Origin: a virus
Lineage: Duplodnaviria; Caudoviricetes
IMG/VR virus record: IMGVR_UViG_3300045580_000155
Span: 1-29,043 of that record
Length of the DNA: 29,043 bases
Direction: 5' to 3' (one strand)
Made by a program: the position numbers and the translations under genes. The notes below the pieces were generated by a model that saw nothing but the letters and a program-made list of their open reading frames with translations, made no database searches and was not told the origin of the DNA. Positions 1 through 29,043 of this stretch are shown in pieces. Position 1 is the first letter of the stretch, and every line of letters begins with the position of its first letter.

Positions 1-202
1 GTGTGGCAGATAGACTAGGTGCTCTGCGTGCCATAACAGATCTTTATGCTAGAACCACAGCAGGCGGACTAGGACTAGAAGACCTAAACAGACTGGCAGA
101 TAGAGGTATTCCAGTTTTTACTATTTTAAGTGATCGTATTGGACTTAATAGATTAGAAATAGGAAAATTAGGACAAACTGCTGAAGGTGCTAGACTTATA
201 TT
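1..202. repeat. Terminal overlap, copy 1 (circular genome join)
   Basis: 1-202 matches 28842-29043 except A128 vs G28969 (TTA/TTG, synonymous Leu). Implies a 28,841-bp circle. Confidence 0.97.
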
Positions 203-2261
203 AGATGCTTTAGAAGCAGGATTACAAGATGCATTTGGCGGAGCCAGTTTAGCCAAGGCAGGAAGTCTAAGTCAAGCAATGAGTAATTTTAAAGATACTA
301 TAAACAATCTTATAGATCTTTTTGCTAGACTAGGAGTAAATCGAGAACTTGCTAATTTTATTAATGCGCTTAGTAATGCCTTAGAAGATTTAAAAGGACC
401 AATAGCAATTATTGCTATACTGTTTAGAGATGCTTTTAAAACTCTTGCTGAAAATATAAAAATTGTTATTGCACTAAGTGCAGCATTTATTGCTGTGTTA
501 AGTATAGGAGCATTAACTGCTATCACTAGAGGACTTTTAGGCATTGCTACTGCCTTTGGTGCAATTAGTAAAACAAAAATAGGTATAATTTTCGGAATAA
601 TTGCCAGTGCTGCTGCTGCTTTAGGACTAAACATTGGGGGAACAGCAGATCGAGTAGAAGATTTAAAAGAAGAATTTAAAAAATTAGATGATATATTAAA
701 AGATTTTGGTAAAAGTCCTGGTGTAGAAGGATTACAACAGGGAAAATTAGCAGATGGAACACAAGACTTTAAAAAACAGGCAGATGCACTTAATACAAGT
801 CTGGCAAAAACTCGCGCAGAATTAGACAATACAGCCAATGCTTACAGTCGTCAGGTTCAAGAGCAACAACGTGCATTTCAACTTCAAACTGACACAATGC
901 GTCTCAATGATGAGCAAAGACTTAGTGTTGAAACTCTTAGACAAGCGGAAGAAGGGTATCTACAGGCCATTGCTCCTTTATTAGAACAGTATAATATCTT
1001 AAGCAAGAGTCGTAATGATGAAGATCAAAAGAAACTTCCTCTAATACAGGAAGCACTACAACGTATTACAGACACTTATCGTAACAGTCTTCCAGATATA
1101 CAACAGGGCATAACCTTAAGACTAAATGAACTTCAGATAATGAAGGAAATGACCTATCAGGCAGAACTGTTGAAGGCCGCTGAAGAACGCAGATTAACTG
1201 TAGATCAGGCTCTAAATGATCTTGTGCTAAGTGGAACTAATCGAGTAAGAGAAGCCAATGAACGCTATATAAATTCTACTCTAACTCCAATGCAGCGTCG
1301 TCTTGCTGAAATTGCACAGGAAGAACGCAATCTCAAAGAAGAAACACTGCGTAGAATAGCAGCACAATTTACCAGCCCAGACAGTGGAGAAATATTAGAT
1401 CCTGACGGATATGTTCGTGCTGTTCAACAGATAGAAGCAGCCACAGAACGTAATATTCGTATGCGACAAGAACAGGCACGCAGAGAAATTGAATATCAAC
1501 GCAGTTTTGCCAGTGGTTGGATAGATGCATTTAGACAGTATCGTGATGCTGCCTACAACAGTGCTGAACAGGCCAAGAACTTTTTCAATAGAACAGTGGG
1601 TGCAATGGAAGACCTATTTGTTAATTTTGCCAAGACTGGTAAATTCGAATGGAAAAAGTTTGTGCAAACTATGGGCGAAGAACTACTACGCAGCCAACTA
1701 AAACGTTTAATCAGTGACATATTTGGTGATATGACTACTGCTATGGACAGCGGAGAAGGATTCTTTGGCAAATTGGGCAGTATATTAGGATTTGGCGGAG
1801 GTTCAGGTAATCAAAACAAAGGATCTAGTCCTACCAATCCACTTTATGTAATAGATATCAACAGTGTTCGTGGAGTTCAAGCAGCACAAAGTCAGGCCAG
1901 AGGTGGTGGCGGAGGAGGATTCTTCAGTGACCTTTGGTCGGGTATAAAGGATATTGGTAACAGCATAGGTAATATATTCAGTGGTGGCTTTGGCACAGGT
2001 AGTGATTTTGGTAATTTAGACTTTGGTGGATTCTTTGCCAATGGAGGCACTATACCAAAAGGACGTTATGGTATTGTAGGCGAGCGTGGACCAGAATATG
2101 TTGCTGGACCAGCCACTGTTAGTCCAATGATGGGCACAAATGTAACTTACAATATCAATGCAGTAGATGCTGCCAGTTTTCGTTCAATGATTGCTGCTGA
2201 TCCTAGTTTTATTCACGCAGTGGCTATGCAGGGCGGTAAAGGCCTAGCAAGGAGATACTAA
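3..2261 (+). CDS. Tail tape measure protein, C-terminal part (full gene starts at 28499 and crosses the join, ~867 aa)
   Basis: Tape-measure motif (EDLNRLADRGIPVFTIL), hydrophobic segments, long coiled coil, lambda-H-like C-terminus (FVNFAKTGKFEWKKF; FANGG...GIVGERGPE). In frame with ATG 28499 across the overlap. Confidence 0.93.
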   Translation: MADRLGALRAITDLYARTTAGGLGLEDLNRLADRGIPVFTILSDRIGLNRLEIGKLGQTAEGARLILDALEAGLQDAFGGASLAKAGSLSQAMSNFKDTINNLIDLFARLGVNRELANFINALSNALEDLKGPIAIIAILFRDAFKTLAENIKIVIALSAAFIAVLSIGALTAITRGLLGIATAFGAISKTKIGIIFGIIASAAAALGLNIGGTADRVEDLKEEFKKLDDILKDFGKSPGVEGLQQGKLADGTQDFKKQADALNTSLAKTRAELDNTANAYSRQVQEQQRAFQLQTDTMRLNDEQRLSVETLRQAEEGYLQAIAPLLEQYNILSKSRNDEDQKKLPLIQEALQRITDTYRNSLPDIQQGITLRLNELQIMKEMTYQAELLKAAEERRLTVDQALNDLVLSGTNRVREANERYINSTLTPMQRRLAEIAQEERNLKEETLRRIAAQFTSPDSGEILDPDGYVRAVQQIEAATERNIRMRQEQARREIEYQRSFASGWIDAFRQYRDAAYNSAEQAKNFFNRTVGAMEDLFVNFAKTGKFEWKKFVQTMGEELLRSQLKRLISDIFGDMTTAMDSGEGFFGKLGSILGFGGGSGNQNKGSSPTNPLYVIDINSVRGVQAAQSQARGGGGGGFFSDLWSGIKDIGNSIGNIFSGGFGTGSDFGNLDFGGFFANGGTIPKGRYGIVGERGPEYVAGPATVSPMMGTNVTYNINAVDAASFRSMIAADPSFIHAVAMQGGKGLARRY

Positions 2262-2572
2262 TGTTAACTCTTAGACAAAAATATGGAATGCAAAAGATTT
2301 CTGCACAAAATAGAAATATAGAATGGAAATTTACTTTTGACGAATGGGTAAATTGGTGGGGAGACGATATACATTTTCGAGGATGTAAGAAAGGACAATT
2401 AGTTATGGCTAGATTAGGTGATTTAGGACCTTATAGTGTAGAAAATGTTATTAAACAAGAATGCGGATTAAACACATCTGAAATGCGTAAACGGGTAAAA
2501 GGCAATGGATCCAATCGAAAAGGCATTGGCGGTGCTTGGAATCGTGGGATGAAAATTAAGGAAATTACATAA
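2261..2572 (+). CDS. Putative His-Me/HNH-like endonuclease inserted in the tail operon
   Basis: FTFDEWVNWW...RG...LVMARLGDLGPYSVENV resembles a common small phage HNH-like family; basic C-terminus; coupled TAATG junctions on both sides. Confidence 0.6.
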   Translation: MLTLRQKYGMQKISAQNRNIEWKFTFDEWVNWWGDDIHFRGCKKGQLVMARLGDLGPYSVENVIKQECGLNTSEMRKRVKGNGSNRKGIGGAWNRGMKIKEIT

Positions 2573-2949
2573 TGTCATTTCAATGGATTATCAACACAGC
2601 AGAAACACTAAGCATTAATAGATTGCAGACCACTGCCTTAACTACCAGTCGTGATGGCACAGTTAGAGTAGTTGGACGTGGAACTCCTCCTAAAAAATTC
2701 ACTGTAAAATTACCCGATGGATTACCCTGGTCCAGTTATAGAAGCAGCATTGTGTCAGCAGAAGCATTGGATAGAATTACAACTGCTACAATTACTATTC
2801 CCTACGCAAAGTTTCCTTGGTATTATAACAATACAGCACCAGCCAGTGATGACAGTTATACAGTGCGTTGTATAGAATTTCCTGAATGGACCATATTTGC
2901 TCGTAATCAGGTCAGTTGGTCAGGTAGTTTCGTGTTTGTGGAGGCATAA
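2572..2949 (+). CDS. Distal tail protein (Dit / lambda gpM-like)
   Basis: 125 aa, first structural gene after the tape measure, beta-rich with C-terminal SFVFVEA. Mainly positional. Confidence 0.6.
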   Translation: MSFQWIINTAETLSINRLQTTALTTSRDGTVRVVGRGTPPKKFTVKLPDGLPWSSYRSSIVSAEALDRITTATITIPYAKFPWYYNNTAPASDDSYTVRCIEFPEWTIFARNQVSWSGSFVFVEA

Positions 2950-3527
2950 TGGCACTGGATCTAAACAGTTATAGATATGTGCAAAGCAATCTCTTTGTGC
3001 GTATCAATCTCAGTTATACTTCTACTATAATTAGACTAACTGACAGTAGAACCAGTAGAACTATTGATGGTGAATCATATGTGGCTGCTGGTAATTTTCT
3101 TGGCATAACTTCAACTACCAGTGAAATCAGTAATCCAGGTAGTGAATTGACCATAACACTAGCAGGTGTGCCTAACTCAGCCATAAGTGATGTTATCAAC
3201 AGCAGACTAAAAGGCAGTAGTGTAAAAGTATGGCGTGGATTTTATGACAGCACAGGCACACTATTGGCCATATCAGGTAATCCAGCAGGTAGATTTACAG
3301 GTATTATTACAAATTACAGCATTCAGGATGAACAGACAGCAGAGACTAGGTCAGGCACTGCCTCTATAAGTTTGACCTGTGCTACTATTGTGAATATTTT
3401 GGCCAATACTACCAAAGGACGCAGAACTAACCCAGAGGATCAAAAGCGATTCTTTGCCACAGATGTCTGTATGGATCGTGTGCCTGAATTAGTGGGCGTA
3501 TATATAGATTGGGGAGCAGGTCAATGA
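2949..3527 (+). CDS. Minor tail / baseplate hub protein (lambda gpL-like position)
   Basis: IRLTD...IDGESYVAAGNFLGI...ELTITLAGV...VKVWRGF...FTGII and terminal DQKRFFATD...IDWG are typical of this siphovirus tail-tip family. Confidence 0.7.
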   Translation: MALDLNSYRYVQSNLFVRINLSYTSTIIRLTDSRTSRTIDGESYVAAGNFLGITSTTSEISNPGSELTITLAGVPNSAISDVINSRLKGSSVKVWRGFYDSTGTLLAISGNPAGRFTGIITNYSIQDEQTAETRSGTASISLTCATIVNILANTTKGRRTNPEDQKRFFATDVCMDRVPELVGVYIDWGAGQ

Positions 3528-4312
3528 GTTGGTGGGATGACTTAGTAGATTTAGGCAGTCAGGCTCTAAGTTGGTATACTGGAAATACCATTGGTGCTCA
3601 ACTGGCTAGAACAGCAGTCACGGGTTATACACTTAATCAGGTAACTCGTGCTATCAATCGTGAGCAAAGTAAGGATCAACAAAAAACACAGGACAAGGGT
3701 GTAAGACTACAACTTGATCCAGATCCTAATGCTAAAATTCCTGTAGTCTATGGCCGGGCCAGTCTAGGTGGTATAATAACAGATGCCACTCTGTATAATA
3801 GTAATCAAAGTCTTTATATATGTTTTACTATCTGTGAACAAACAGGTTATTTAGATTTAGGTGCAGGTGCTATAAGTGACATTACATTCCGTGATATCTA
3901 TTGGAATAATCAACGACTAATATTCCAAACATCTGGAACAGGTGCAGGAATCATAGTGACAAAAAGCATTGATGACACTGGCGCAGAAAATACTGACATA
4001 GCAGGACTCATACAGGTATTTTGTTATAGTGGCAACAGTTATTATCCTGTGGTTCCTTACGGATATACCAATGCTGCGTTAAATTATGCTAACAATATAT
4101 TTCCTACCTGGACAGCCAATCACGATATGTCAGATCTTGTATTTGTCATAGTGCGTATGGATTATAACAGAGAAAAGTCGTTGACCAGCATAGGTGATTG
4201 GACATTTGTCATAGAAAACACAATGACACAGCCAGGTGACTGTTTGTATGACTATATGACCAACACTCGTTATGGTGCTGGTATTGATCCTGCGGAGATT
4301 TATCTATCGTGA
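3524..4312 (+). CDS. Tail-tip attachment protein (gpJ-like), N-terminal portion
   Basis: Start refined to ATG 3524 (ATGA overlap, upstream GGAG). Motifs KIPVVYG and PGDCLYDYMTNTRYGAGI characteristic of J-like central tail proteins. Confidence 0.75.
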   Translation: MSWWDDLVDLGSQALSWYTGNTIGAQLARTAVTGYTLNQVTRAINREQSKDQQKTQDKGVRLQLDPDPNAKIPVVYGRASLGGIITDATLYNSNQSLYICFTICEQTGYLDLGAGAISDITFRDIYWNNQRLIFQTSGTGAGIIVTKSIDDTGAENTDIAGLIQVFCYSGNSYYPVVPYGYTNAALNYANNIFPTWTANHDMSDLVFVIVRMDYNREKSLTSIGDWTFVIENTMTQPGDCLYDYMTNTRYGAGIDPAEIYLS

Positions 4313-6174
4313 AAAGCCTTAGCGAACTTAATTCATTTGCCAATACCAGTGTAACTGTAACTGATTCTAGACCCAGTAGAGTGATTTTTGACCTTGTTAG
4401 TCCATTAGAACCACAGGATCGAGTGTTTACAGTAACTTCTACCACAGTGGTTGTAGTCCCAACAGTGAACATTGAAGACATTTGGAATTATGCTACAGCA
4501 GATGTAAGATATAGAGTTAGTATTATAACATCAGCAAGTAATCCATTAACCAGCACGATTAGTTTTCCTAGTTATCCTGCACATATGACATTGACCAGTG
4601 TGGGAAATGTTTATACACTATCAGGATTTCAAAATGTTGAAGATTGGGAAACAGTTAAATCATTTACTTGGAATCTAGAGGCTGCTTATTCTAGCCGAGA
4701 ACTTTGGTTTTTACAAATTGATATAATTTATTATAGTAGTCTATTAGCACAAGATGTAGAAACAACCTGGTATGCTTTTGATGACATTTATTATTATCAA
4801 GCCAGACTGGATTCAACATTTAGTCTTTCAATGACTGCTTTGGCTCCTGTTATATTTTTAGCAAGTTCAATGTCATCATCAGCGGCTATAGAGATAATAG
4901 GCAGTCGTGTAAAAGGATTACAGGCTAATTTAACAACTAGTGCTAGTTTAACTGCCACAGGTAATGTTAATGTTACTATTTTACCTGTAGACATTAATTT
5001 AACTGCCAATGTTAATAGACGAATTGGAATCATTTCTAATTTATCTGTGGTGACCAGTTTAACCTGTAATCAAACTATTGTTACGCTAACAAATTATACA
5101 AATAGACAATTTAAGAGTCAGGCTAAGAATTTAATTTTTACCTCTGATTATTATGCTAATACCACTCCAGTAATAGCAGTAGACTCGGCCAATAGTGCCA
5201 ATCCAATAACCATTGAATTAGTGGCCAATAATGGTTATTGGAGTGATAATGCCTATACTGCGGCCACAGCAACTTGGTCATATACAGGTTCATTGACTGA
5301 AGTTAATAATAAGTTTCCTATTATTAGATTTTATGGCCTTAGAAATAGCATTGATTTTCTTGGTTATTTAGGCTATACTTACATTAACAGCACGGCTACT
5401 TTAAACATCTACATAAATGGTGGATTAATTAAGACTAAAACAATAAACTTAACTACAACAAGTCGTAGTGATACTATAACTGAAACAGTTACTCATACTA
5501 ACAGTAGTGGCGTCTGGCCTGTGTTCACACCTGGATTTAACGGAACATCTACTATTCCTAATGAAATTGCCTTGTATAGAAAATTATTCGGCAGTATTAT
5601 AGGATCAGGAGGCAGTGCTAGTTATCAAGGCATTGTGTCAGGCAATTACCAAGGAAGTGGCGGTGGTGGTGGAGAAGTTTTAGATTTTAATTTTACAAGT
5701 CTTGTCCAAGTGCCAGTTGGAACTTATAATTGGAGCGTGGGGTCTGGTCATTCTAGTGCATATCCATCTACAGTAGCAGGAACTGATGGTGATAACACAG
5801 TGGCCTATGGATACACTGCTCGTGGCGGAAAGAAAGGACTAGCAACCAGCGTAGGTGGTGCAAGCGGTAATACACTTGCTGGAGGACCTAGTCCCGGAGG
5901 CGGTGGAGGTGGTGCCGGAGCAGCAGCCTCTGGTCGAAATGCAGGAATCGGACTGATTCTTCCAAGTGTGACAGTAGGGTCTGGTTATACTTGGCCAGGA
6001 CCAAGTAGCATAGATGGTAGTGCTGGTGCTGGTGGTCGGGGTATGGCCCTTGGTCTTAGTGCAACTGGTTATAGCAGTAACTATGGACGAGGAGCCAATG
6101 CTAATGCTAGTTCTACTTCTTCCGGCAGCGGACTGGTAGCAATAGACTTTATTCATTGGTGGGCAGGATTATAA
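4309..6174 (+). CDS. Tail-associated protein with ~20-aa repeats and Gly-rich C-terminal domain, lying between the two J-like halves
   Basis: GTGA overlap with upstream stop; Ser/Thr-rich beta protein; repeats such as ANLTTSASLTATG; C-terminal GSGGGGGE...TARGGKKG...GGGGGAG. Confidence 0.7.
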   Translation: MKSLSELNSFANTSVTVTDSRPSRVIFDLVSPLEPQDRVFTVTSTTVVVVPTVNIEDIWNYATADVRYRVSIITSASNPLTSTISFPSYPAHMTLTSVGNVYTLSGFQNVEDWETVKSFTWNLEAAYSSRELWFLQIDIIYYSSLLAQDVETTWYAFDDIYYYQARLDSTFSLSMTALAPVIFLASSMSSSAAIEIIGSRVKGLQANLTTSASLTATGNVNVTILPVDINLTANVNRRIGIISNLSVVTSLTCNQTIVTLTNYTNRQFKSQAKNLIFTSDYYANTTPVIAVDSANSANPITIELVANNGYWSDNAYTAATATWSYTGSLTEVNNKFPIIRFYGLRNSIDFLGYLGYTYINSTATLNIYINGGLIKTKTINLTTTSRSDTITETVTHTNSSGVWPVFTPGFNGTSTIPNEIALYRKLFGSIIGSGGSASYQGIVSGNYQGSGGGGGEVLDFNFTSLVQVPVGTYNWSVGSGHSSAYPSTVAGTDGDNTVAYGYTARGGKKGLATSVGGASGNTLAGGPSPGGGGGGAGAAASGRNAGIGLILPSVTVGSGYTWPGPSSIDGSAGAGGRGMALGLSATGYSSNYGRGANANASSTSSGSGLVAIDFIHWWAGL

Positions 6175-6176
6175 TT

Positions 6177-7553
6177 ATGACAACAGTAATTCCTAGTTTA
6201 TTTGAAATCAATGGTGTTATAGACACTAGTAAATCAGTATTAGAAAATATGAATCTAATCTGTGAAGCCACTAATGCTTGGATGACATTTGACATACATC
6301 AGGGCAAATGGGCAGTGGTCATAAACACCACAGGTTCCAGTGTGGCCAGTTTTACTGACACAAACATAGTGGGTGGTATAAGCATAAGTTCTACCAGTTT
6401 AACTGAAGTCTATAACAGTGCTGAAATGGAATTTCCACATCAGGATCTTAGAGATGAACCTGATTATGTGCGTGTCAGTGTGAATTCAGGAGACCGTTAT
6501 CCTAATGAACCTGATAATGTGCTCAGTATGTCAAGTCAACTTGTGAATAATCAGGCTCAGGCACAGATTATTGCGTCAGTGGCCTTAAAACAGAGTCGTA
6601 TGGACAAGGTCATCAATTTTAGTGCTGACTATAGTTATATCGGGCTCAAGGCCGGTGACCTCATTGACATTACCAGCACAGTCTATGGTTTTACCAATAA
6701 GGTATTTCGCATAACCAGTATTACAGAAGAAGACTCTGAGCAGGGCATCATACAGGTCAATATCACAGCCTTGGAATATGATAGTTCAATATATTCTACA
6801 GCAGGATTGACCATAACACCAAGACAGCGTGACACCAGCATAGTGGCCAAACCTTTAAATTCTACCATACAGAACATTGAAGCCCAGCAGGGACTTAAAT
6901 TGGATCTTAGCGCAGCCGCCGCAGCCAGTGGACTTACCTTAGTGTTTAATAGTCTAACTGGACGCTATGAACTCAGTCAGGCAGGAATTCTTACTGAAAT
7001 CTCGGCTAGTCGTGCCATTATTACTTGGACTTATCAGGATGGTGTGGACTTAGACATACGCTGTCGTATTCAAACTCCCAATTTAGGACAAAGCACTGTG
7101 GATCAATATGTGGGATGGACAGGAGGCACAGGTGATACCACAGTATGGCCCACTTCAGGAACTCCTATTATTACCTGGGGAGGTGACAACACTGGTCCTG
7201 GTGGTGATCCTACTGCTCAAGAAAATGTCTATGTCAATGTCAGTGAATTTAAAACAGTGTATCCTGGTAATAGATATTTGGTCATAGAATGTAGAGGCAA
7301 TTGGTATGGAACACAGGGACTTAAACCTGTATTACTTACAGCCACAGTCTATGATTCAGGCACAGTAACACCTAGTGGATTTGGATTCACTGTAACAGGA
7401 TATACTACAGGTAGATTCATTGAAGGTGTAACTGTATTTGTTGCAAGTTCGGGCACAGCAGGCACAGAATTAGGCACACTTATGGGTTATCTTGTTATAG
7501 ATACCACAGATAATACTGCACAGTTTCGTAATGACCTTACTGGTATAAGTTAA
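6177..7553 (+). CDS. Tail-tip attachment protein (gpJ-like), hub / C-terminal portion
   Basis: Start refined to ATG 6177. FEINGVIDT...GKWAVVI, YNSAEMEFP, LKAGDLIDIT...KVFRITSI...ITALEYDSSIY are J-like hub motifs; C-terminal DLDIR...WGGDNTG domain. Confidence 0.8.
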   Translation: MTTVIPSLFEINGVIDTSKSVLENMNLICEATNAWMTFDIHQGKWAVVINTTGSSVASFTDTNIVGGISISSTSLTEVYNSAEMEFPHQDLRDEPDYVRVSVNSGDRYPNEPDNVLSMSSQLVNNQAQAQIIASVALKQSRMDKVINFSADYSYIGLKAGDLIDITSTVYGFTNKVFRITSITEEDSEQGIIQVNITALEYDSSIYSTAGLTITPRQRDTSIVAKPLNSTIQNIEAQQGLKLDLSAAAAASGLTLVFNSLTGRYELSQAGILTEISASRAIITWTYQDGVDLDIRCRIQTPNLGQSTVDQYVGWTGGTGDTTVWPTSGTPIITWGGDNTGPGGDPTAQENVYVNVSEFKTVYPGNRYLVIECRGNWYGTQGLKPVLLTATVYDSGTVTPSGFGFTVTGYTTGRFIEGVTVFVASSGTAGTELGTLMGYLVIDTTDNTAQFRNDLTGIS

Positions 7554-7597
7554 TAAACTGTTTTAAACCCTTTTAATTGTATTTTTTTGTGTTTAGG

Positions 7598-7603
7598 TAA
7601 ATA
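7598..7603 (+). promoter_or_regulatory. T4-type late promoter core TAAATA followed by a 5' hairpin
   Basis: Intergenic TAAATA. Hairpin TGTCCC(7608-7613)/GGGACA(7625-7630) begins 4 nt downstream, then AAGGAG and ATG 7658. Confidence 0.7.
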
Positions 7604-7657
7604 CAGTTGTCCCAAAAATAGTTAGGGACACAGAATACAACTAATAAGGAGCCCGAT

Positions 7658-8041
7658 ATGTCGGCAGCAAGTGATTTTACAGAGAACCTGGCATTGACCT
7701 GGTTATTAACTTCAAGTTCAGCAACAAGACCAAGTGCTTGGTATCTTGGACTTTTTACATCAGCAACCAGTGACGCTGGTGGTGGCACAGAAGTAAGTGG
7801 TGGCAGTTATGCTCGTCAAAGCGTAGCATTTACAGTATCTACTTCAACTGCCAGCAACAGTGCTACTATTACATTCCCAACAGCCAGTGCAAGTTGGGGC
7901 ACAATTACTCACGTGGCAGTGTTTGATGCCAGCACCAGCGGCAATATGCTGTTTCACGGAGCAGTTACAACCAGCAAGACCATTGACAGTGGTGACACTT
8001 TCCAGGTTACATCAGGTAACCTGACAATTACTCTTGCCTAA
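7658..8041 (+). CDS. Small fibre/filament structural subunit
   Basis: Widespread phage fibre-subunit motif YLGLFT...GTEVSGGSYARQSVAF...NSATITFPTASASWGTITHVAVFDA.TSGNML. Own promoter, strong SD, 3' hairpin. Confidence 0.75.
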   Translation: MSAASDFTENLALTWLLTSSSATRPSAWYLGLFTSATSDAGGGTEVSGGSYARQSVAFTVSTSTASNSATITFPTASASWGTITHVAVFDASTSGNMLFHGAVTTSKTIDSGDTFQVTSGNLTITLA

Positions 8042-8046
8042 TAAAG

Positions 8047-8067
8047 AGTAGGGCACCTAGCCCTACT
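8047..8067 (+). promoter_or_regulatory. Intergenic stem-loop (mRNA-stabilising or weak terminator)
   Basis: AGTAGGGC-ACCTA-GCCCTACT, perfect 8-bp stem, no U-tract on the + strand. Confidence 0.6.
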
Positions 8068-8084
8068 AAAGGATAAACTAAACT

Positions 8085-17097: not shown

Positions 17098-17104
17098 AAA
17101 CAAG

Positions 17105-19116: not shown

Positions 19117-19122
19117 TAAATA
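19117..19122 (+). promoter_or_regulatory. T4-type late promoter core TAAATA, leaderless start
   Basis: TAATAAATA-cata-ATG(19127); no SD. Confidence 0.7.
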
Positions 19123-19926: not shown

Positions 19927-19932
19927 GAACAC

Positions 19933-19940
19933 TATAAATA
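19933..19940 (+). promoter_or_regulatory. Perfect T4 late promoter consensus TATAAATA heading the packaging operon
   Basis: Just after the terminator; ATG 19946 is 5 nt downstream with no SD. Confidence 0.75.
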
Positions 19941-20431: not shown

Positions 20432-20799
20432 CTGTAGATGAACGTATTGGCATTCTAGAAGAAAGAACTACAAATATCGGTGTGAGATTGGATGAAGTTA
20501 GGCAGGAAGTAAAAGAAATGCACGACTGCTTGGACAGAACAAGAGATTTATTAGATGCCAAGATGGAATCAATGTTAGTGGAATATAGACAGAATAGAGA
20601 TAATTTTTATACTAAATTGGATGAACATAATCGAACGAATACACAGGGTCATCAGGAAATGATGACTAAAATAAATGATTTGGAGCGAGCGAAAAACAAG
20701 GCCACAATCATAGGTATAGCCCTAGCAGCATTTATAGCAGGCACCGGCTATCTTACCCACGGTGAAGTGGCCAAGATAATACGACTGCTCGCTGGATGA
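20428..20799 (+). CDS. Coiled-coil protein with C-terminal membrane anchor (XhlA/holin-like architecture)
   Basis: ERIGILEE... coiled coil, then ATIIGIALAAFIAGTGYL; ATGA coupling. Confidence 0.6.
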   Translation: MTVDERIGILEERTTNIGVRLDEVRQEVKEMHDCLDRTRDLLDAKMESMLVEYRQNRDNFYTKLDEHNRTNTQGHQEMMTKINDLERAKNKATIIGIALAAFIAGTGYLTHGEVAKIIRLLAG

Positions 20800-20969: not shown

Positions 20970-22205
20970 ATGTCATTAACACCTGCTCAACAACAAATAG
21001 CATACAGTCCTAGTAGAATGACTGTGGCAATTTGCGGACGTAGATTTGGAAAAACTTTTCTTGCTCGTAATCGCATTGCCTATGCTGCTAGAATTCCCAA
21101 TCAAGAAGTATGGTATGTGGCTCCTACTTATAGACAGGCCAAACAGATAATGTGGCGTAGTTTAAAAAATAAACTACAAGATTTAAGATGGATTAAAAAA
21201 ATCAATGAGTCTGAACTTAGTATAGTATTAAAAAATAATAGCATAATATATCTTAAGGGCAGTGACAATAGTGACAGCCTCCGTGGTAGTCGAATTCATT
21301 ATTTGGTCTGCGACGAATTTGCTCTTATGGACAGTGAAAGTTGGTTTAGCGTGCTTAGACCTATGCTCAGTGACACACAAGGTCGTGCTCTGTTTATTAG
21401 CACACCTATGGGACAGGCTAACTGGGCTTATGACCTGTATCAAATGCAGCATACACAGCCTGAAGTTTGGCGAAGTTTTTCATATTCTACGTTAGATGGC
21501 GGTCAGGTCAGCGAAGAAGAGATAGAAGCCGCAAGGCTTGACTTAGACGAGCGGACCTTTCGTCAGGAATTTATGGCCACATTTGAACAATTTCAAAATA
21601 GAGTCTATTACAGTTTTGACAGAGTCTATAATGTTCTAGATGCTGGGGATATGAACACTGATATTATATATTGTGGAATTGATTTTAATGTCAGCCCAGT
21701 AACAGCAGTTATAGCAATTAGACAGGGAGACAATTTATATGTCATCGACGAAATCCGTATGTATTCTTCTAATACCCAAGAACTTGCGGCAGAAATACAT
21801 AGCAGATATCCAACGAGTAAGAAGTTCGCATATCCAGATCCCTCAGGAACGCAGCGTAGAACCTCGGCTGGCGGCCTTACTGACCACACGATACTCGCCA
21901 ACAATCAATTTACAGTCAAATCACCAAGAAGCCATACTCCGGTTAGAGACAGAATCAATGCAGTCAATTCCAGATTGTGCTCAGCAGCGGGCAAAAGACA
22001 CCTCTTTATAAGCCCACGGTGTAAATATACTATAGAAAGTTTAGAAAAGCATAGTTATCGACAAGACAGTGTTCAGCCTGACAAAGATAGTGGATGGGAC
22101 CACTTAACTGATGCTCTAGGCTATATGGTTGATTACCTGTTTCCTATACGAAGAAATCAGGAACCACAACGTGCCCAACGATGGGTGCATAGAATACAAG
22201 GATAA
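20970..22205 (+). CDS. terL: Terminase large subunit
   Basis: Walker A GRRFGKT, YVAPTYRQAK, Walker B YLVCDE, coupling motif ISTP, nuclease GIDFN...DHLTDALGY. Confidence 0.97.
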   Translation: MSLTPAQQQIAYSPSRMTVAICGRRFGKTFLARNRIAYAARIPNQEVWYVAPTYRQAKQIMWRSLKNKLQDLRWIKKINESELSIVLKNNSIIYLKGSDNSDSLRGSRIHYLVCDEFALMDSESWFSVLRPMLSDTQGRALFISTPMGQANWAYDLYQMQHTQPEVWRSFSYSTLDGGQVSEEEIEAARLDLDERTFRQEFMATFEQFQNRVYYSFDRVYNVLDAGDMNTDIIYCGIDFNVSPVTAVIAIRQGDNLYVIDEIRMYSSNTQELAAEIHSRYPTSKKFAYPDPSGTQRRTSAGGLTDHTILANNQFTVKSPRSHTPVRDRINAVNSRLCSAAGKRHLFISPRCKYTIESLEKHSYRQDSVQPDKDSGWDHLTDALGYMVDYLFPIRRNQEPQRAQRWVHRIQG

Positions 22206-22210: not shown

Positions 22211-23770
22211 ATGAATGTAATAGAAACCCTAAATGAAGAACTAAGAAGACTGTTACAGGGTAATCAACTCTATGAAGATTATATTGACCAATGGAAGTTT
22301 TTACTTGAAAGTTTCGTCGGAGGACGTGAATATAGAGATGGAAATCATTTGACACGTTATCAATTAGAAACTGATGCAGAATATGCTGCACGTATTAGAA
22401 CAACTCCTTTACAAAATCACTGTGCCAGTGTTATACAAATCTATAATAGTTTCTTGTTTAGACAAAGTCCTGAACGTGATTTTAGTCTAAATGGACAACA
22501 AGAATTAGTAGAGATGACACTGAGAGATGCTGACTTTGATGGTCGCAGTCTTGATGCCTTTATGAAAGAGGCTGCTACCTGGGCCAGTGTGTTTGGACAC
22601 AGTTGGATCATAGTCAGCAAGCCTAATGTTGGTGCTGTAACACAGGCTGATGAACAGGCTCTTGGTGTTAGACCCTATCTCAGTGTGCTTACTCCAATGG
22701 TAGTGTTAGATTGGCAGTATCAGCGTCAGCCCAATGGCAGTATGGAATTAGTTCTGCTACGTTATTTGGAAGATGTCACTGGTGATTCACGAACAGTAAG
22801 AGTATGGACCAAGGAATCAATTACGACCACAACCATTGATGTTAAAAAGGGCTATATAGAAACTGAATTAATAGAACCAAATCAACTAGGACGAATTCCT
22901 GCTGTCTGTGTTTATAATGGACGCAGCATCGTGCGTGGATTCGGCATCAGCGACATAGCAGACACGGCCTATGTTCAAAAGTTTATCTATAACTGTCTAA
23001 GTGAAGTAGAGCAGACTATTCGTATGGATAGCCATCCCAGTCTAGTGGTAACCCCTGAAACCAATGTGGGCACTGGCAGTGGAGCCATTATACATATGCC
23101 CGAGAATCTAGATCCAGGACTAAAACCCTATCTATTAGAATTTACGGGTGCTGAAGTCAATAACATTCTAACCACTATAGACCGAGCAGTGGACAGTATT
23201 GACCGTATGAGCAACACAGGCAGCATACGAATGACTGAAGCACGTCGTCAAACAGCCGCAGCACAAGAGCAAGAGTTCCAAATGCTAAATGCTCGTCTCA
23301 GCGAAAAAGCCGATAACCTAGAACTAGCAGAAGAACAAATGTGGCAATTTTGGTTTGCTTATCAAGGCGAAACCTGGATGGGCAGTGTTGAATATCCTAA
23401 CAGTTTTAATATTCGTGATGAACAAATGGAAATCAGTCAACTACAACAGGCTCGTAGTGCTGCTACTGATCCGGCTGTGCTGCGTGAAATTGACAAGAAG
23501 ATTTTAGAATTCTTAGGGGTAGAACCTGAAGCAGTGTTTGCCTATGAAGACATTAAGCCAGAACAGGGTAGAACATATCCTGATGGCGAATCTATACCTG
23601 AATCATTGCCACCTGCATATCAAGACAGTGCCAGCCCTGATGTGCCAGGCGAGCAAAAGTGTGCTAATTGTAATTACTATGTGGCCACAGAAAGTTATTG
23701 TAATAAGTTTGATGCACTAGTTAGACCCATTTATTGGTGTGCTAGTTGGGAACAGAAAGAAGAAGAATGA
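22211..23770 (+). CDS. Portal protein with C-terminal HiPIP-like four-Cys domain
   Basis: Follows TerL; DADFDGRSLDAFM...FGHSWIIV, NQLGRIPAV, GISDIAD, VEYPNSF portal motifs; tail CANC-x9-C-x12-C. Confidence 0.9.
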   Translation: MNVIETLNEELRRLLQGNQLYEDYIDQWKFLLESFVGGREYRDGNHLTRYQLETDAEYAARIRTTPLQNHCASVIQIYNSFLFRQSPERDFSLNGQQELVEMTLRDADFDGRSLDAFMKEAATWASVFGHSWIIVSKPNVGAVTQADEQALGVRPYLSVLTPMVVLDWQYQRQPNGSMELVLLRYLEDVTGDSRTVRVWTKESITTTTIDVKKGYIETELIEPNQLGRIPAVCVYNGRSIVRGFGISDIADTAYVQKFIYNCLSEVEQTIRMDSHPSLVVTPETNVGTGSGAIIHMPENLDPGLKPYLLEFTGAEVNNILTTIDRAVDSIDRMSNTGSIRMTEARRQTAAAQEQEFQMLNARLSEKADNLELAEEQMWQFWFAYQGETWMGSVEYPNSFNIRDEQMEISQLQQARSAATDPAVLREIDKKILEFLGVEPEAVFAYEDIKPEQGRTYPDGESIPESLPPAYQDSASPDVPGEQKCANCNYYVATESYCNKFDALVRPIYWCASWEQKEEE

Positions 23771-24129
23771 CCGGGAGCGAATCGGTGAGACTTCCTTACA
23801 GGCACATTAGAGAATTTAGACAGCAAACACTGCTGTTACAAAATAATCAATGTGCTCTATGTGAGGACATTATAACAGATGATGCAGTATTGGATCACTG
23901 TCATAGAACAGGACTAGTCAGACAGGTATTGCATAGAGGGTGTAACGCACTATTGGGAAAAATAGAAAACAATCTTAAGCGTAATCGTATAACGACCACC
24001 CGATTAGAGCGCATTGCTCTTAACCTAACTGACTATATCCTAACTGAACACACAGACATAGTTCATCCAAAACATCAAGGAGCAGATATGAAAAAGTCAA
24101 AGCGTAAACCAGCAAAAAAGAAATATTAA
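23767..24129 (+). CDS. Endonuclease VII-like (His-Me finger) nuclease
   Basis: QNNQCALC...VLDHCHRTGLVRQVLHRGCNALLG; start refined to ATG 23767 (ATGA overlap). Confidence 0.85.
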   Translation: MTGSESVRLPYRHIREFRQQTLLLQNNQCALCEDIITDDAVLDHCHRTGLVRQVLHRGCNALLGKIENNLKRNRITTTRLERIALNLTDYILTEHTDIVHPKHQGADMKKSKRKPAKKKY

Positions 24130-24382: not shown

Positions 24383-24410
24383 TAAATACTCCATATAACT
24401 CATAATGGAG
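24383..24410 (+). promoter_or_regulatory. T4-type late promoter core TAAATA plus SD-sequestering hairpin for the scaffold/capsid operon
   Basis: TAAATA(24383-24388), then CTCCAT(24389-24394) pairing with ATGGAG(24405-24410), which contains the SD. Confidence 0.7.
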
Positions 24411-24421: not shown

Positions 24422-25090
24422 ATGTCAGACAATACATTGACGGAGGTCACTGATACCTCAGAAACAAATCAGGCCCAGGTAGCAAGAACTTACAGTCAAG
24501 AAGAAGTTGATGGAATGATGGCAAGGATGAAATCCAGCCTTCAAAAACGACTACTAAAACCCTATGAAGACCTAGGTGATCCTGAAGAACTTAGAAACAT
24601 TAAAACAGAATGGGAAAAGCGACAACAGGAACAACAGGTCAAGCGTGGAGAGTTTGAAAAAATTCTACAGGATAAGGCTGCTCGGTGGGAACAAGAAATA
24701 GCAAAAAGAGACCAAATCATTAAGGACTATCGTGTGAATACACCTTTACTGTCAGCAGCAGCACGTTATAATGCAGTCAATGCCGAGCAGGTAAAGAGTC
24801 TTCTTATTTCCAATGTTAGACTTAATGACACAGGTGATGTCGAAGTCATAGATAGCAAAGGTTCAGTTCGTTATACGGACCGTGGAGAACCATTAGGCGT
24901 TGATGACCTAGTGCGTGAATTTTTAGATTCGAATCCGCATTTCCGCACAGCAACTCCTGCTACTACGGCAACTCGGACCAGTATAGCAGCCCCTAGTCCT
25001 CAGAGAATAGATGTGTCTAAATTAGATATGAATAATCCTGAACATAAGAGGCTCTATCGAGAACATAGAAAGGCTTTAGGCCTTCGTTAA
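24422..25090 (+). CDS. Capsid scaffolding protein
   Basis: TYSQEEVD, coiled coil, EFLDSNPHF; directly upstream of the capsid gene. Confidence 0.85.
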   Translation: MSDNTLTEVTDTSETNQAQVARTYSQEEVDGMMARMKSSLQKRLLKPYEDLGDPEELRNIKTEWEKRQQEQQVKRGEFEKILQDKAARWEQEIAKRDQIIKDYRVNTPLLSAAARYNAVNAEQVKSLLISNVRLNDTGDVEVIDSKGSVRYTDRGEPLGVDDLVREFLDSNPHFRTATPATTATRTSIAAPSPQRIDVSKLDMNNPEHKRLYREHRKALGLR

Positions 25091-25109
25091 ACTTTAAAGG
25101 ACATTTATT

Positions 25110-25961
25110 ATGGCTAATGAAAGCACAACCACTACGCTAAATGACCTCCTACCCAGCATTGTTGCAGAAGCATTGTTTGTGGCCAGTGAGGCATCAATTA
25201 TGCGTAATCTAGTAAGAAATTACACAATCCCAATGGGCAGTGGTAAAACAATCACAGTTCCACGTTATCCTCAGGTCAGCGCAGCAGCATTGACTGAAGG
25301 CACAGATTTGACCAATACAGCAGTCAGCACAGATGGCGCTGTATTAACTGTTAGTGAAGTTGGTGTTATGACAGTGGTCACTGACCTTGCTCGTATGGCC
25401 AGTGCCAGCAATGTAATCGCTGATGTAGGACGTTTATTTGGTGAAGCAATTGCTCGCAAAATTGACACTGACCTAACAGCACTGTTTGATGGTTTCTCAA
25501 CCAATGCACTTGGTGATGGCACTACAGCAATTACTGCTGCTGCTATTTTCCAAGCAGTGGCCAAACTACGCAGTGCTGGTGTTCCTCCAACAGATTTATT
25601 CTGTGTATTACACCCAGCAATTGCCTATGACCTCAAGGCCAATATGACCAACACATTTGCTAACCCAAATGCTGGTATTCTTCAAAATGAAGCAATGGCC
25701 ACTGGTTATGTGGGCACACTGGCTGGAGTTCCAATCTTTGAAACATCAAATATGGCCAATACTGGCACTACTGGTGATTACAAAGGTGGATTATTCCACA
25801 GAGACGCTCTTGGACTTGCCTTCCTACAAGACATCAAGATTGAAACACAGCGTGACGCAAGTCTCCGTGGTGATGAACTTGTAGCCACAGCAGTATATGG
25901 TGTTGGCGAATTGTATGATGGCTATGGCGTAGAATTACACTACGACTCAAGCATTCTTTAA
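25110..25961 (+). CDS. Major capsid protein (HK97 fold)
   Basis: GKTITVPRY...LTEGTDL, GEAIARKIDTDL, VLHP...YDL, GTLAGVPIFETSN, IETQRDASLR, VYGV. Confidence 0.93.
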   Translation: MANESTTTTLNDLLPSIVAEALFVASEASIMRNLVRNYTIPMGSGKTITVPRYPQVSAAALTEGTDLTNTAVSTDGAVLTVSEVGVMTVVTDLARMASASNVIADVGRLFGEAIARKIDTDLTALFDGFSTNALGDGTTAITAAAIFQAVAKLRSAGVPPTDLFCVLHPAIAYDLKANMTNTFANPNAGILQNEAMATGYVGTLAGVPIFETSNMANTGTTGDYKGGLFHRDALGLAFLQDIKIETQRDASLRGDELVATAVYGVGELYDGYGVELHYDSSIL

Positions 25962-25975
25962 TCAGGGAGCACTTT

Positions 25976-26485
25976 ATGGCTTTCATTATTGAATCTGGTT
26001 CTGTTACAAGTTTTGCTGAATATAGTGATGCTGTCACACAGGATCAGCGACTATTTTTAAGTAATGAAAGCCTCACTGATGACTATGTTGAGCCCTTATT
26101 GATTCGTGCCACAGAACGTATCTTGACAAGATTAAGAGCCAGTTCGTGGTGGCGTAGTTATTTCATTCAGAGAGACACTGCGACCACAATCAATACAGTG
26201 GCCGACATTCCAGGTCTTGACCCAGATCGTATTCTAAGCAGACAGGACGACTTCACAGACCTTTGTGTGTTTGTGGCCTTTAGCGACTATATTCTACCAG
26301 GTATAGCAGACTTTGGAGACGAAGCCAACAGCGAGCGTCAGAAAATGGGCTACTACAAACAACGTGGGGACGAACTCATAGCAGAATTGATTACGGCAGG
26401 AGACTGGTATGATTTTGACAATGACAGCACCATTGATACCACAGAAAAACAGCCCGGACAGGTAAATCTAAAGAGAATAAGATGA
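25976..26485 (+). CDS. Head-to-tail adaptor (putative)
   Basis: Position after the capsid gene; helical; YDFDNDSTID..EK C-terminus. Confidence 0.6.
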   Translation: MAFIIESGSVTSFAEYSDAVTQDQRLFLSNESLTDDYVEPLLIRATERILTRLRASSWWRSYFIQRDTATTINTVADIPGLDPDRILSRQDDFTDLCVFVAFSDYILPGIADFGDEANSERQKMGYYKQRGDELIAELITAGDWYDFDNDSTIDTTEKQPGQVNLKRIR

Positions 26486-26874
26486 GACAAGAGATATTAG
26501 ATTATATTGGAGATCTTAATCTTGGTGCATTTACCACCAGTCAGGAACTACCTTGGGACAGTTCAGGAACACCGCTTTACGTAAAAAACTTGAAAAAGAT
26601 TTACGTGGATCGTCCTGAATACACTGAGGAAACTGTGATAGCAACCTTAGATGGTGTTACTATAGAAAATCAAACCACATCAGTGCGAGCGTTCTTTGCT
26701 TGTGATGCCAAAGCACTACCACCCAGTTATGATGACCTAGTTCAGGACCTAAGATCTGTTAGAGATATTGACACAGTCACTGGCTTTTCAAGTCGTGGCT
26801 GCGAAATCACTAGTAGATTTGAATCAGATGTCTTGGTCACAGAACTGACTTATACTTTCGTCAAACTAATATAA
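26482..26874 (+). CDS. Tail terminator / completion protein (putative)
   Basis: 130 aa, MRQEILDYI start, immediately before the tail tube gene. Confidence 0.55.
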   Translation: MRQEILDYIGDLNLGAFTTSQELPWDSSGTPLYVKNLKKIYVDRPEYTEETVIATLDGVTIENQTTSVRAFFACDAKALPPSYDDLVQDLRSVRDIDTVTGFSSRGCEITSRFESDVLVTELTYTFVKLI

Positions 26875-26885
26875 AGGAAACAACT

Positions 26886-27401
26886 ATGGCGTATATTAAT
26901 CCAGGACCAGGAACAGCAAGTCAAATTGTGTTATCAATTGACACCACTGCTAGTTCCACAGTAACTGGTGATCCTGCTACAGCCATTGCACTAGGGGCTA
27001 GTCCTCTAACTGTGCCTGCTATTCAGGATATCACCGTAAATGCTGCTAATGATGTTTTCACTTGGAGCCAGTTAGACAGTTCAGCCAAAAAACAAGTAGC
27101 AACTACTTCTACTAATTCAGTTAGTATGAATGTTGTAGTAGATGATGCTTCATTCTTTGGCTCTACACTAGCCAGCACTCAAAGTGACACAGTGGCAGCA
27201 CAGGGACTTTTAGGTCTCAGCCGCAACAAAACCCCAATTTGCTTTACACTGAAAATGCGTGAAAATTCAAGCACAGACCGTGTGATCAAAGGACAGGGCT
27301 ATATTACTGGTCTAGCACCAACAATATCAGCAGACAGTCCAGTATGGGTAACACCTGTAACTATCACAGTTGCTGGTGAATACTTGGTTGCAGTAAGTTA
27401 A
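26886..27401 (+). CDS. Major tail tube protein
   Basis: Beta-rich 171 aa ending GYITGLAPTISADSPVWVTPVTITVAG; strong SD and terminator; precedes the chaperones. Confidence 0.8.
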   Translation: MAYINPGPGTASQIVLSIDTTASSTVTGDPATAIALGASPLTVPAIQDITVNAANDVFTWSQLDSSAKKQVATTSTNSVSMNVVVDDASFFGSTLASTQSDTVAAQGLLGLSRNKTPICFTLKMRENSSTDRVIKGQGYITGLAPTISADSPVWVTPVTITVAGEYLVAVS

Positions 27402-27420: not shown

Positions 27421-27445
27421 AAGGGCTATTCGTAGCCCTTTTTTT
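27421..27445 (+). terminator. Rho-independent terminator with UUCG loop
   Basis: AAGGGCTA-TTCG-TAGCCCTT-TTTTT. Confidence 0.92.
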
Positions 27446-27454
27446 GTATTGACT

Positions 27455-27460
27455 TAAATA
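27455..27460 (+). promoter_or_regulatory. T4-type late promoter core TAAATA restarting transcription after the terminator
   Basis: 9 nt after the U-tract; followed by AGGAAG and ATG 27478. Confidence 0.7.
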
Positions 27461-27953: not shown

Positions 27954-28216
27954 ACGCCAAGATTGAAGATTCAGATCCGGATCTTAGGCGTATATTGATG
28001 TTAGATGGGTTAGCAACAAGATACAAATTGCTGCCCAGTGAAGTTTTAAGTAGAGGTGATACTTTGGATGTATTAGTAATGGATCGAGCACAGGCCTGGG
28101 AACAGTATCAACGAGACTTATATGAAAGTAAAACACAGGGTCGTGCTCCACCTCCTCCTAAAAACATTCCCAAGACTGAACTACAGGCCTTGTTAGATAG
28201 TGTGAGAAAACAATGA
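27941..28216 (+). CDS. Frameshift extension of the tail chaperone (gpT-like)
   Basis: -1 frame reads GKVLDAKIEDSDPDLRRILMLDGLATRYKLLPSEVL..., in frame with track ORF 27995. Confidence 0.82.
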   Translation, partial: GKVLDAKIEDSDPDLRRILMLDGLATRYKLLPSEVLSRGDTLDVLVMDRAQAWEQYQRDLYESKTQGRAPPPPKNIPKTELQALLDSVRKQ

Positions 28217-28497
28217 AATTAAAATTAGTATCAGATACTATAACAGGTAGTTTAGACCGTAATCAGAGATTTTTAACTCAGTTGCCTCGACGAGCCTTTG
28301 ATTATTTTATCAAACAAACTCCTAAGGATACAGGTCGTGCTAGATCAAATACAAGATTACAGTCAACAACCATTGAAGCAAATTATCCTTACGCTCAGGT
28401 TTTAGATCGTGGTTCAAGTCGTCAGGCTCCACAAGGTATGACTAAACCTACACAACAGTATCTAAATAAGTTGGTAAGACAATCGCTAAGGAAATAA
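28213..28497 (+). CDS. HK97 gp10-like tail component
   Basis: TPKDTGRARS...NYPYAQVLDRGSSRQAPQGM motif. Confidence 0.75.
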   Translation: MKLKLVSDTITGSLDRNQRFLTQLPRRAFDYFIKQTPKDTGRARSNTRLQSTTIEANYPYAQVLDRGSSRQAPQGMTKPTQQYLNKLVRQSLRK

Positions 28498-28498
28498 T

Positions 28499-29043
28499 AT
28501 GGCTGATTTAAAGTATAGTTTGGATATTGACACAAGAGCGGCCTCAACTGCTCTGGGTGCTTTACGTAATCAACTAGCAGGATTTGCCAGTGCTATAGGA
28601 GCAGGATTTGCTGTCAGTGGCATTGTTCAAGTAGCAGCAAGATTTGAAGATCTAAGATTAACACTACAAACTTTGTATCGAGATACTGCTCAAGGCAATC
28701 AGATATTTGCAGATATCAAAGATTTTGCCAAGACTAGTGCGTTTGCTGTAGAAGATCTAGTGGAAGCAGTGTTAAAATTAAAAGCCGCAGGCATTGAACC
28801 AACTGTGGCTCAACTTAGATTATTTGCAGATGTCAGTGGTAGTGTGGCAGATAGACTAGGTGCTCTGCGTGCCATAACAGATCTTTATGCTAGAACCACA
28901 GCAGGCGGACTAGGACTAGAAGACCTAAACAGACTGGCAGATAGAGGTATTCCAGTTTTTACTATTTTGAGTGATCGTATTGGACTTAATAGATTAGAAA
29001 TAGGAAAATTAGGACAAACTGCTGAAGGTGCTAGACTTATATT
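28499..29043 (+). CDS. Tail tape measure protein, N-terminal part (continues at position 203), not in the ORF track
   Basis: TAAGGA SD; MADLKYSLDIDT...IKDFAKTSAFAVEDL...GIEP; open to the window end. Confidence 0.93.
   Translation, partial: MADLKYSLDIDTRAASTALGALRNQLAGFASAIGAGFAVSGIVQVAARFEDLRLTLQTLYRDTAQGNQIFADIKDFAKTSAFAVEDLVEAVLKLKAAGIEPTVAQLRLFADVSGSVADRLGALRAITDLYARTTAGGLGLEDLNRLADRGIPVFTILSDRIGLNRLEIGKLGQTAEGARLI
28842..29043. repeat. Terminal overlap, copy 2
   Basis: See 1-202. Confidence 0.97.

Follow-up and report, generated by a model that had tools for sequence, protein, structure and literature searches.

Among described phage satellites, MiniFlayer and MulchRoom come closest to the system considered here. 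Both have capsid and packaging genes of their own but no tRNAs, and both resemble their helpers in guanine–cytosine (GC) content and codon use; MiniFlayer does not integrate (PMC10690885). Dependence of the Mulch/Flayer satellite viruses on a helper for replication was seen in culture, and the word "promoter" is absent from the main text of that paper (PMC10690885). Here we examine a stretch of 29,043 nucleotides, IMG/VR virus record IMGVR_UViG_3300045580_000155 (Duplodnaviria; Caudoviricetes), referred to below as the window, and the hexamer TAAATA that recurs upstream of its genes. The window is a complete small tailed phage that builds its own virion, and it is probably a satellite whose transcription relies on a jumbo phage infecting the same cell. 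A wider proposal, to which we give slightly less than even weight, is that it belongs to a widespread, family-level aquatic lineage of 26–32 kb, non-integrating and with a complete virion, whose members are obligate "sigma parasites" of RaK2/PA5oct-like lytic jumbo phages.

Like MiniFlayer and MulchRoom, the window encodes capsid and packaging functions, no tRNA gene was found in it, and its GC content and codon use match those of a helper type rather than of an individual helper. Unlike them, it has a PolA-fold cassette and a full tail module with an 867-amino acid tape measure; what it would borrow is a late sigma factor, and the dependence is read from sequence. As with the PICI, cf-PICI, P4 and PLE elements, the window is small, has a minimal replicase of its own and would be helper-dependent (PMC10690885, PMC12822802); unlike these elements, which in the available text of those sources integrate and take the helper's capsid or tail, it has no integrase and encodes both head and tail. 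A literature search, which covered titles and the beginnings of abstracts and few subscription journals, returned no paper on small phages that use a helper's gp55-type sigma factor. PLE shares the promoter word ATAAAT with ICP1, a point for which the search likewise gave no paper.

The T4 late promoter is TATAAATA at −13 to −6, with a TAAATA core at −11 to −6 and 5′ bases that vary between phages (PMC1524935). The sites described here resemble T4 late promoters in the TAAATA core, the lack of a −35 box and the variable 5′ bases (PMC1524935, PMC2988020); the differences from T4 are that gp55 is missing from the window genome, that the TA prefix is not retained and that non-virion genes, too, have boxes ahead of them. 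In the jumbo phage CBB, ATAAATA stands ahead of structural genes and a gp55-like sigma is encoded, while gp33 and gp45 were not detected (PMC5259590). The RaK2/CBB/PA5oct-like jumbo phages share with the window ATAAATA or TAAATA ahead of structural genes as well as similar GC content and codon use, and one of them has the PolA-fold family in common with it. They differ in encoding the sigma themselves and in being about ten times larger, and they are proposed here as a helper type, not as relatives.

The relatives of the virion genes lie elsewhere. The terminase large subunit (TerL), portal, scaffold, capsid and tail genes are homologous, and similarly ordered, in the lineage of DSL-LC06 and the HTVC111P-type pelagiphages, whose genomes, like the window, fall within 26–34 kb. 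DSL-LC06 is a metagenome assembly placed in the proposed family "Nanhuiviridae" (PMC10611076). The HTVC111P types match the window at 60–68% in the capsid and 46–48% in TerL and differ in a GC content of 30–33%, in lacking the TAAATA motif and in the lysozyme of HTVC111P; they were also cultured alone and called podoviruses (10.1101/2019.12.14.876532). The available text of the two sources makes no mention of the motif or of a helper, either for DSL-LC06 (PMC10611076) or for the HTVC111P types (10.1101/2019.12.14.876532).

TAAATA as a promoter word

The first-pass annotation had described a closed 28.8-kb genome with all genes on one strand, and both points hold. The ends overlap by 202 nt with 1 mismatch, which gives a circular tailed-phage genome of 28,841 bp (1..28841, + strand; positions 28842–29043 repeat the start), and the tape measure frame reads through the junction. 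CheckV completeness of the record is 100, the GC content is 39.7%, and essentially all genes lie on the + strand. In an unbiased hexamer ranking, TAAATA is the top upstream hexamer of the window, with 7 occurrences vs 0.09 expected. Over the whole window it is scarce (14 copies vs 35.2 in shuffles), and 11 of the copies are on the + strand, nine of which fall at least partly in the 1,048 non-coding nucleotides. Coding DNA holds 2 sense and 3 antisense copies vs 18.0 and 16.8 expected under synonymous codon shuffling, and none of 500 shuffles was as low. Six control hexamers show no such depletion; TAAGTA and CAAATA are mildly depleted on the sense strand. The longer word TATAAATA was rejected as the motif, as its 2 copies in the window compare with 3.04 by chance.

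It had been claimed that (TA)TAAATA heads most operons. The hexamer survives this scrutiny as the top upstream word; the extended form does not, and only 7 of the 14 intergenic gaps longer than 20 nt contain TAAATA, to which two intragenic sites ahead of the portal and the tape measure can be added. A TAAATA follows each of the three clearest + strand terminators (15741, 19899 and 27421), and TAAATA stands ahead of non-virion genes too. All sites listed here are on the + strand. The predicted late promoter of the fibre block (7598..7603) lies 60 nt 5′ of a gp80-like gene. Another copy (15631..15636) runs across the stop codon of open reading frame (ORF) 15281; it is followed by an intrinsic-terminator-like hairpin (15741..15770) and by the copy at 15801..15806, 22 nt 5′ of ORF 15823, which has a Shine–Dalgarno sequence. 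The copy ahead of the block of the LuxR-type helix-turn-helix (HTH) and PolA-like genes (16169..16174) is within TATAAATA at 16167. Predicted leaderless mRNAs would start from the copy at 19117..19122, 10 nt 5′ of the ATG of ORF 19127, and from that inside the TATAAATA at 19933–19940, which follows a terminator-like hairpin at 19899–19920 (19899..19940 in all) and places TAAATA 11 nt 5′ of the ATG of the terminase small subunit at 19946. A further copy (19833..19838) is at the end of ORF 19669. The predicted head-operon promoter (24383..24388), 39 nt 5′ of the scaffold gene, is conserved in position across relatives. The third terminator-like hairpin (27421–27440) is followed by TAAATA at 27455 (27421..27460), and the copy inside the neck gene (28463..28468) is 36 nt 5′ of the tape measure start.

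The copy inside TerL at 22022, 189 nt 5′ of the portal, is a possible embedded portal promoter. It is spelled by a C-K-Y tripeptide, and the codons of this tripeptide spell TAAATA in all 6 parsed TerL genes that have it. TerL genes with no embedded copy often have a separate TAAATA just 5′ of the portal. Two further spots resemble variant sites: a perfect 8-bp hairpin 5′ of a fibre gene (window 8047–8084) is followed by TAAACT 11 nt from the ATG, and TAAGTA stands ahead of ORF 15281. Both TAAACT (near 8084) and TAAGTA are possible variant promoters.

Relatives were collected through the capsid (80 IMG/VR loci) and TerL (44 loci). In the pooled clade TAAATA is again the rank-1 upstream hexamer, at 74 vs 1.6 expected, an enrichment that arises partly by selection because the set was picked by its TAAATA signature together with TerL similarity. 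Taken singly, the near-complete relatives rank it first in 5 of 7 cases, second in the 32-kb relative G013 and below the count threshold in G014, and DSL-LC06 shows the signature at 7 vs 0.15 expected. Loci near 40% GC have the signature; those related to SAR11 phages, at 30–35% GC, do not, and in the latter TAAATA ranks 180 among upstream hexamers. The conservation in relatives that the earlier annotation had proposed as a check is found in this signature-selected set, both the word and its spacing being kept across about 20 relatives.

The geometry of these sites is consistent with a late promoter of the gp55 type. Of the clade copies, 113 of 282 are found no more than 60 nt from the start of an ORF, compared with 2–13% for control hexamers. 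Spacing is bimodal, with 18 sites at 9–12 nt, only 6 at 13–20 nt and a peak of leaderless ATGs at 10–11 nt; a Shine–Dalgarno sequence accompanies 1 of 23 sites at spacings up to 12 nt vs 73 of 84 at 20 nt or more. Only 26 of the 113 upstream sites have the TA prefix, so the full TATAAATA consensus does not hold in the clade. No −35 element emerged, as no base exceeds 50% at −40 to −1 in 116 sites from about 20 relatives. Since the T4 promoter occupies −13 to −6, its +1 is eleven bases away from the first T of the core, and we infer for the present sites a transcription start about 5 nt after the box. Together with this T4 geometry, the short-spaced class makes leaderless mRNAs the likely product of those sites. 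TAAATA is therefore predicted to behave like a gp55-type late promoter. An archaeal TATA box was considered and rejected, given the missing TTT prefix, the ATGs at 10–11 nt and the bacterial terminators.

The search for a reader of TAAATA

The absence of an encoded late sigma, noted in the first-pass annotation, extends beyond the window. The gp55 profile phrog_234 matched T4 alone among 28 records, and the long late-sigma profile phrog_12791 matched two jumbo phages alone among 32; neither profile matched the window or any of 14 small relatives. Annotation of the window with Pfam and PHROGs (42 ORFs) and NCBIfam (27 ORFs) found no integrase, helicase, single-stranded DNA-binding protein, clamp, endolysin or sigma region 2. 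The earlier statement that replication and lysis genes are missing stands for helicase, single-stranded DNA-binding protein, clamp, integrase and endolysin and needs correcting for a split PolA-fold protein and a holin-like ORF, which are present. Two overlapping scans of 137 ORFs of relatives, all outside structural clusters and at least about 52 amino acids long, also gave no sigma factor and no endolysin; the ORFs scanned include holin-like genes, HNH nucleases and methylases. The relatives do not share every absence, as G014 has a primase and DUF5906 helicase-like pair (L136:2978-5792) behind a dual sigma70/TAAATA promoter. In the complete genomes of G004 and DSL-LC06 (26 and 30 kb) no replication, transcription or endolysin gene was recognised, and these two offer the clearest tests of helper dependence. 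No primase or other key replication gene was recognised in G015.

Intergenic promoters of the TTGACA-17-TATAAT type occur in G007 (8), G009 (5), DSL-LC06 (3), G014 (2) and G008 (2), mostly ahead of small genes, which indicates that the sigma70 of their hosts is conventional. These textbook early promoters, together with the lack of a gp55-like sigma in the 15 small genomes, suggest that an outside factor reads TAAATA. The promoter scan gave no intergenic sense sigma70 site in the window, G013 or G015. Counted over the whole window, sigma70 promoters are at chance level (49 vs 41.9 and 44 vs 46.5 expected) and were set aside. In G007 and G009 (L130-L132), near-identical sigma70 promoter cassettes are repeated before small genes; the repeated cassette of G009 matched G009 only. 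G007 also has an AAA ATPase (phrog_1250) with homologs in the jumbo phages G031 and G032.

The dual sigma70 and TAAATA promoters of G014 and G008 and the sigma70-only early cassettes of G007 and G009 would also suit a facultative freeloader, which replicates weakly or persists by itself and in which TAAATA boosts or triggers virion production when a jumbo phage arrives. The varied replication modules of the relatives fit such a phage as well. We consider it distinctly unlikely, as the head and tail genes have TAAATA only and the window, G013 and G015 came out of the scan with no intergenic sense sigma70 site.

Alternatively, the phage could be autonomous, with an unrecognised protein of its own, from a small ORF or carried in the virion, that makes host RNA polymerase read TAAATA. 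Most small ORFs of the window have no family match in Pfam, PHROGs or NCBIfam, the sigma70 early genes of relatives could express such a factor first, the cultured kin are autonomous, and the window does have a LuxR-type HTH and a polymerase-fold protein. The stand-alone LuxR/GerE-type HTH (16235..16429, +; PF00196 E 1e-16, with all NCBIfam matches under curated cut-offs) is, as judged from these profiles, sigma region-4-like only and no sigma factor. Neither it nor the PolA-like protein is common to the clade, and both were rejected as readers of TAAATA. The PolA-like alignment matched 0 of 24 relatives, though G013 has a distant member of the family, and its cassette is swapped out in close strains, so it cannot be the promoter reader of the clade; moreover, every PDB match listed for its homolog is a DNA polymerase A. 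None of the non-virion families occurs in all complete relatives, the window has no intergenic sigma70 promoter from which a cascade could start, and motif and spacing equal those of the gp55-type jumbo phages. On balance an autonomous phage with its own reader seems unlikely.

A host factor, that is, an alternative sigma or activator of the bacterium that reads TAAATA and makes a second phage unnecessary, appears very unlikely. In its favour, gp55-like genes were sampled in one bacterial class only. The profile phrog_12791 matched 3 of 400 genomes of that class, the third weakly, and 0 of 14 control genomes; the strongest match is on a short contig beside an ORF that reads as SbcC/gp46-like, and this looks like a binned phage contig. 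We know of no bacterial sigma factor with a lone TAAATA box. The host itself was sought through short DNA matches, of which two were found in 401 genomes of one family; with no repeat array at either, and one (L366) in a coding-like stretch, this lead was dropped.

Jumbo phages as the candidate helper type

Candidate helpers were reached through ORF 18917 (18917..19099, +), which encodes a 60-amino acid domain protein common with large freshwater phages and has 358 IMG/VR relatives, many on contigs of 83–327 kb. Of 20 relatives tested on larger contigs, three match gp55: G031 (327 kb) and G032 (a 199-kb fragment) strongly, and G036 weakly. The late sigmas of G031 and G032 are 282–285 amino acids long (E 6e-80 and 1e-78) and are closest to those of PA5oct/MIJ3 (49%) and RaK2 (42%). 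The loci of this type have a GC content of 38–40%. Of the TAAATA sites, 87 of 212 in G031 (41%) and 52 of 133 in G032 (39%) stand ahead of ATGs, with the same peak at 10–11 nt and few TA prefixes; in 80 more loci around the long sigma, 246 of 605 TAAATA sites do so (41%), with few leaderless ones. No gp45 match was found in G031 or G032. gp55 alone supports basal transcription by unmodified core polymerase from supercoiled DNA and does not need the clamp (PMC2988020), so that its use in trans is mechanistically open. The T4-like helper suggested at first is retained in its gp55-type grammar and revised in its identity: the best-matching helper type is freshwater RaK2/PA5oct-like jumbo phages, with a sigma of about 285 amino acids and no gp45 in the two examined, and not classic T4.

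Codon use points the same way. The median correlation with the window is 0.84 for 64 jumbo loci, which are interrelated and were found via the shared gene, compared with 0.76 for 20 SAR11-type kin and 0.61 for 10 loci of other phages with comparable GC content. Tetranucleotide signatures gave no pointer to a helper, and the 4 tRNA calls in G031 and G032 together are too few for an informative tRNA test. G036 was rejected as a helper, its gp55 match being weak and the TAAATA signal absent, as was the 735-kb phage LR756501, which lacks a gp55 match and, in the 40-kb piece examined, a TAAATA signal.

If the window is a satellite of such a phage, its particle would infect a bacterium and stay silent or episomal until a jumbo phage brings the late sigma. 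This gp55-like sigma would act in trans and let host RNA polymerase fire the TAAATA promoters, virions would be built from the small phage's own genes, and lysis would presumably be completed by the helper's endolysin. With proteins of the host or of the helper, the PolA-fold cassette may prime or copy the small genome. The helper could be met by waiting as an episome, as several relatives have sigma70 early genes, or by riding on the helper particle, given that tail and fibre genes make up about 12 kb.

Several observations weigh against this proposal. No integrase was found, nor any integrated copy among the best 80 of 197 TerL matches in genome collections, so that meeting the helper needs a further mechanism; the best of these matches are short free contigs in unrelated metagenome-assembled genomes, with the motif examined in 10 of the 80 loci. 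A novel reader could hide among the small ORFs that lack a family. The HTVC111P-type pelagiphages have no DNA polymerase and were purified alone by dilution to extinction (10.1101/2019.12.14.876532); as these cultured kin grow helper-free, a lack of replication genes is not evidence of dependence. A TerL tree of 33 rows, whose root is unsure, places them as a supported group among the TAAATA phages, beside DSL-LC06 at 91/91, and lifestyle is therefore not readable from the virion genes. This virion lineage can be autonomous. The gene type of ORF 18917, through which G031 and G032 were reached, also occurs in large phages with no gp55 match (17 of the 20 are blank, mostly fragments; the 735-kb phage is another), and SAR11-type controls likewise have a few genes in common with G031. 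Common codon use may reflect a shared host alone. Finally, the replication borrowing that the first annotation proposed is weakened to a partial one at most by the window's own PolA-fold protein and by the primase and helicase-like gene of G014.

The regulatory signal is real and strong, and the satellite variant, whose dependence we infer, is likely new. Known phage satellites take capsids, tails or replication functions, and borrowing a sigma alone while encoding a whole virion would, if true, differ from these. Gene-content classifiers would then see an ordinary small phage, so that viromes would conceal such parasites; a simple signature for finding them and pairing them with helper types would be a late-promoter word whose sigma is missing. 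Long gp55-like sigmas occur in an estimated 1,700 or so IMG/VR stretches. Abundant freshwater jumbo phages would, if the proposal is true, carry hyperparasites, which bears on lake lysis rates and gene flow, and the autonomous SAR11 phages as close kin would show how a switch of lifestyle happens. The central claim can be tested with a plasmid reporter in E. coli.

Replication cassette and remaining genes

The PolA-fold family is represented by two ORFs on the + strand, 16699..17097 for its N-terminal part (hhalign E 1.8e-5 to the family N-terminus) and 17105..18316 for a polymerase-like protein with a family A palm (homologs at 33–36%; predicted primase/polymerase). They are the two halves of a family of 505–535 amino acids, which we take to be of the TV-Pol type. 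A frameshift artefact was discarded, because contigs of runs X3 and X12, one of them from another study, show exactly the same junction; the split thus appears to be natural. The acidic motifs A and C appear in the family alignment as invariant D and HD columns. For the structure search we used a model of the homolog P0007 (pLDDT 67.8), the single-sequence model of the window protein having a pLDDT of 34.6. The P0007 model matches DNA polymerase I of the Klenow/Bst type (E 9e-6 and TM about 0.3 at best); among its viral matches is a Zamilon replication protein. Every listed PDB fold match is a DNA polymerase A. With regard to a single-subunit (T7-type) RNA polymerase fold, the listed PDB rows include no RNA polymerase, and one viral row is weak (E 0.28); a PDB sequence search with the PolA-like profile gave 0 matches.

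Contigs of runs X7, X8 and X12 diverge from the window at 16430 or 16576 and rejoin it at 18301, and close strains from three other studies have different DNA in place of 16430–18301, so this interval is, judged from these contigs, a replication-module hotspot. The jumbo phage G031 has a fused 593-amino acid homolog among its early genes (L331:2507-4285; 24% over 363 amino acids). Distant matches of the family were also seen in a 143-kb Desulfovibrio phage. A near-palindrome, TAGTGACACT(A/T), occurs in two copies (16615..16655) 5′ of the PolA-fold genes; the boxes may be an operator, possibly for the LuxR-type HTH, or origin repeats.

The complete siphovirus set of the first annotation is borne out by profiles for the main head, tail and packaging genes, among them TerS, TerL, portal, scaffold, major capsid protein, neck, tape measure, hub, J-like tail and fibre genes, while tail tube, head-completion and chaperone are assigned by gene position only. 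All features that follow are on the + strand. The terminase small subunit (19946..20431; phrog_309 E 1.5e-4) belongs to a family found in 16 of 18 genome sets. It is followed by a coiled-coil protein with a C-terminal hydrophobic segment (20428..20799), holin-like and putatively so in role; an ORF of similar build in G004 matches phrog_1193 hemolysin. TerL (20970..22205; Pfam/PHROGs) and the portal (22211..23770; phrog_145 E 5e-55) come next; the portal has a cysteine-rich C-terminal extension with a weak HiPIP match (E 0.004). Endonuclease VII (23767..24129; PF02945 E 2e-12) precedes the scaffold, major capsid, two head-completion ORFs and a putative tail tube (24422..27401), of which scaffold and capsid are assigned by profile and the rest by position. 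The tape measure (28499..28841, then 1–2261) is one 867-amino acid frame across the circle junction. Tail tip, hub, J-like protein and fibre or decoration genes (gp80-like, gp77-like, LamG) were recognised by profiles in 2572..15257.

Further profile matches comprise, besides endonuclease VII and the LuxR/GerE HTH, two HNH-like proteins, both of phrog_16521. The first (2261..2572) has phages of 136–225 kb as its 20 best listed cultured matches; it was rejected as a tie to T4-like phages, since its only other IMG/VR match is a GC-rich unrelated phage, and it is merely mobile. The second (19127..19510) is the most widespread non-virion gene of the near subclade and has no match in cultured phages. 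ORFs 18524–18691 and 19669–19839 are small lipoprotein-like or membrane proteins that could act in exclusion or be spanin-like.

DNA near-identical to the window is present in freshwater metagenomes, where 16 of 24 listed runs contain at least half of the sampled words (2 of these are possibly source runs). Near-identical head-operon contigs were found in 4 RNA runs from 3 studies, and such contigs mark presence, not 5′ ends or dependence. Most genes outside the head block were not covered in these runs, to which we attach no meaning. Among the relatives, the spare DNA of DSL-LC06 is taken up by glycosyltransferases. G013 (32 kb; L134:17079-19791) has a glycosyltransferase, a MazG-like hydrolase, a thymidylate-synthase-like enzyme and an Nmad1 domain, a set that suggests modified DNA bases in a very small phage.

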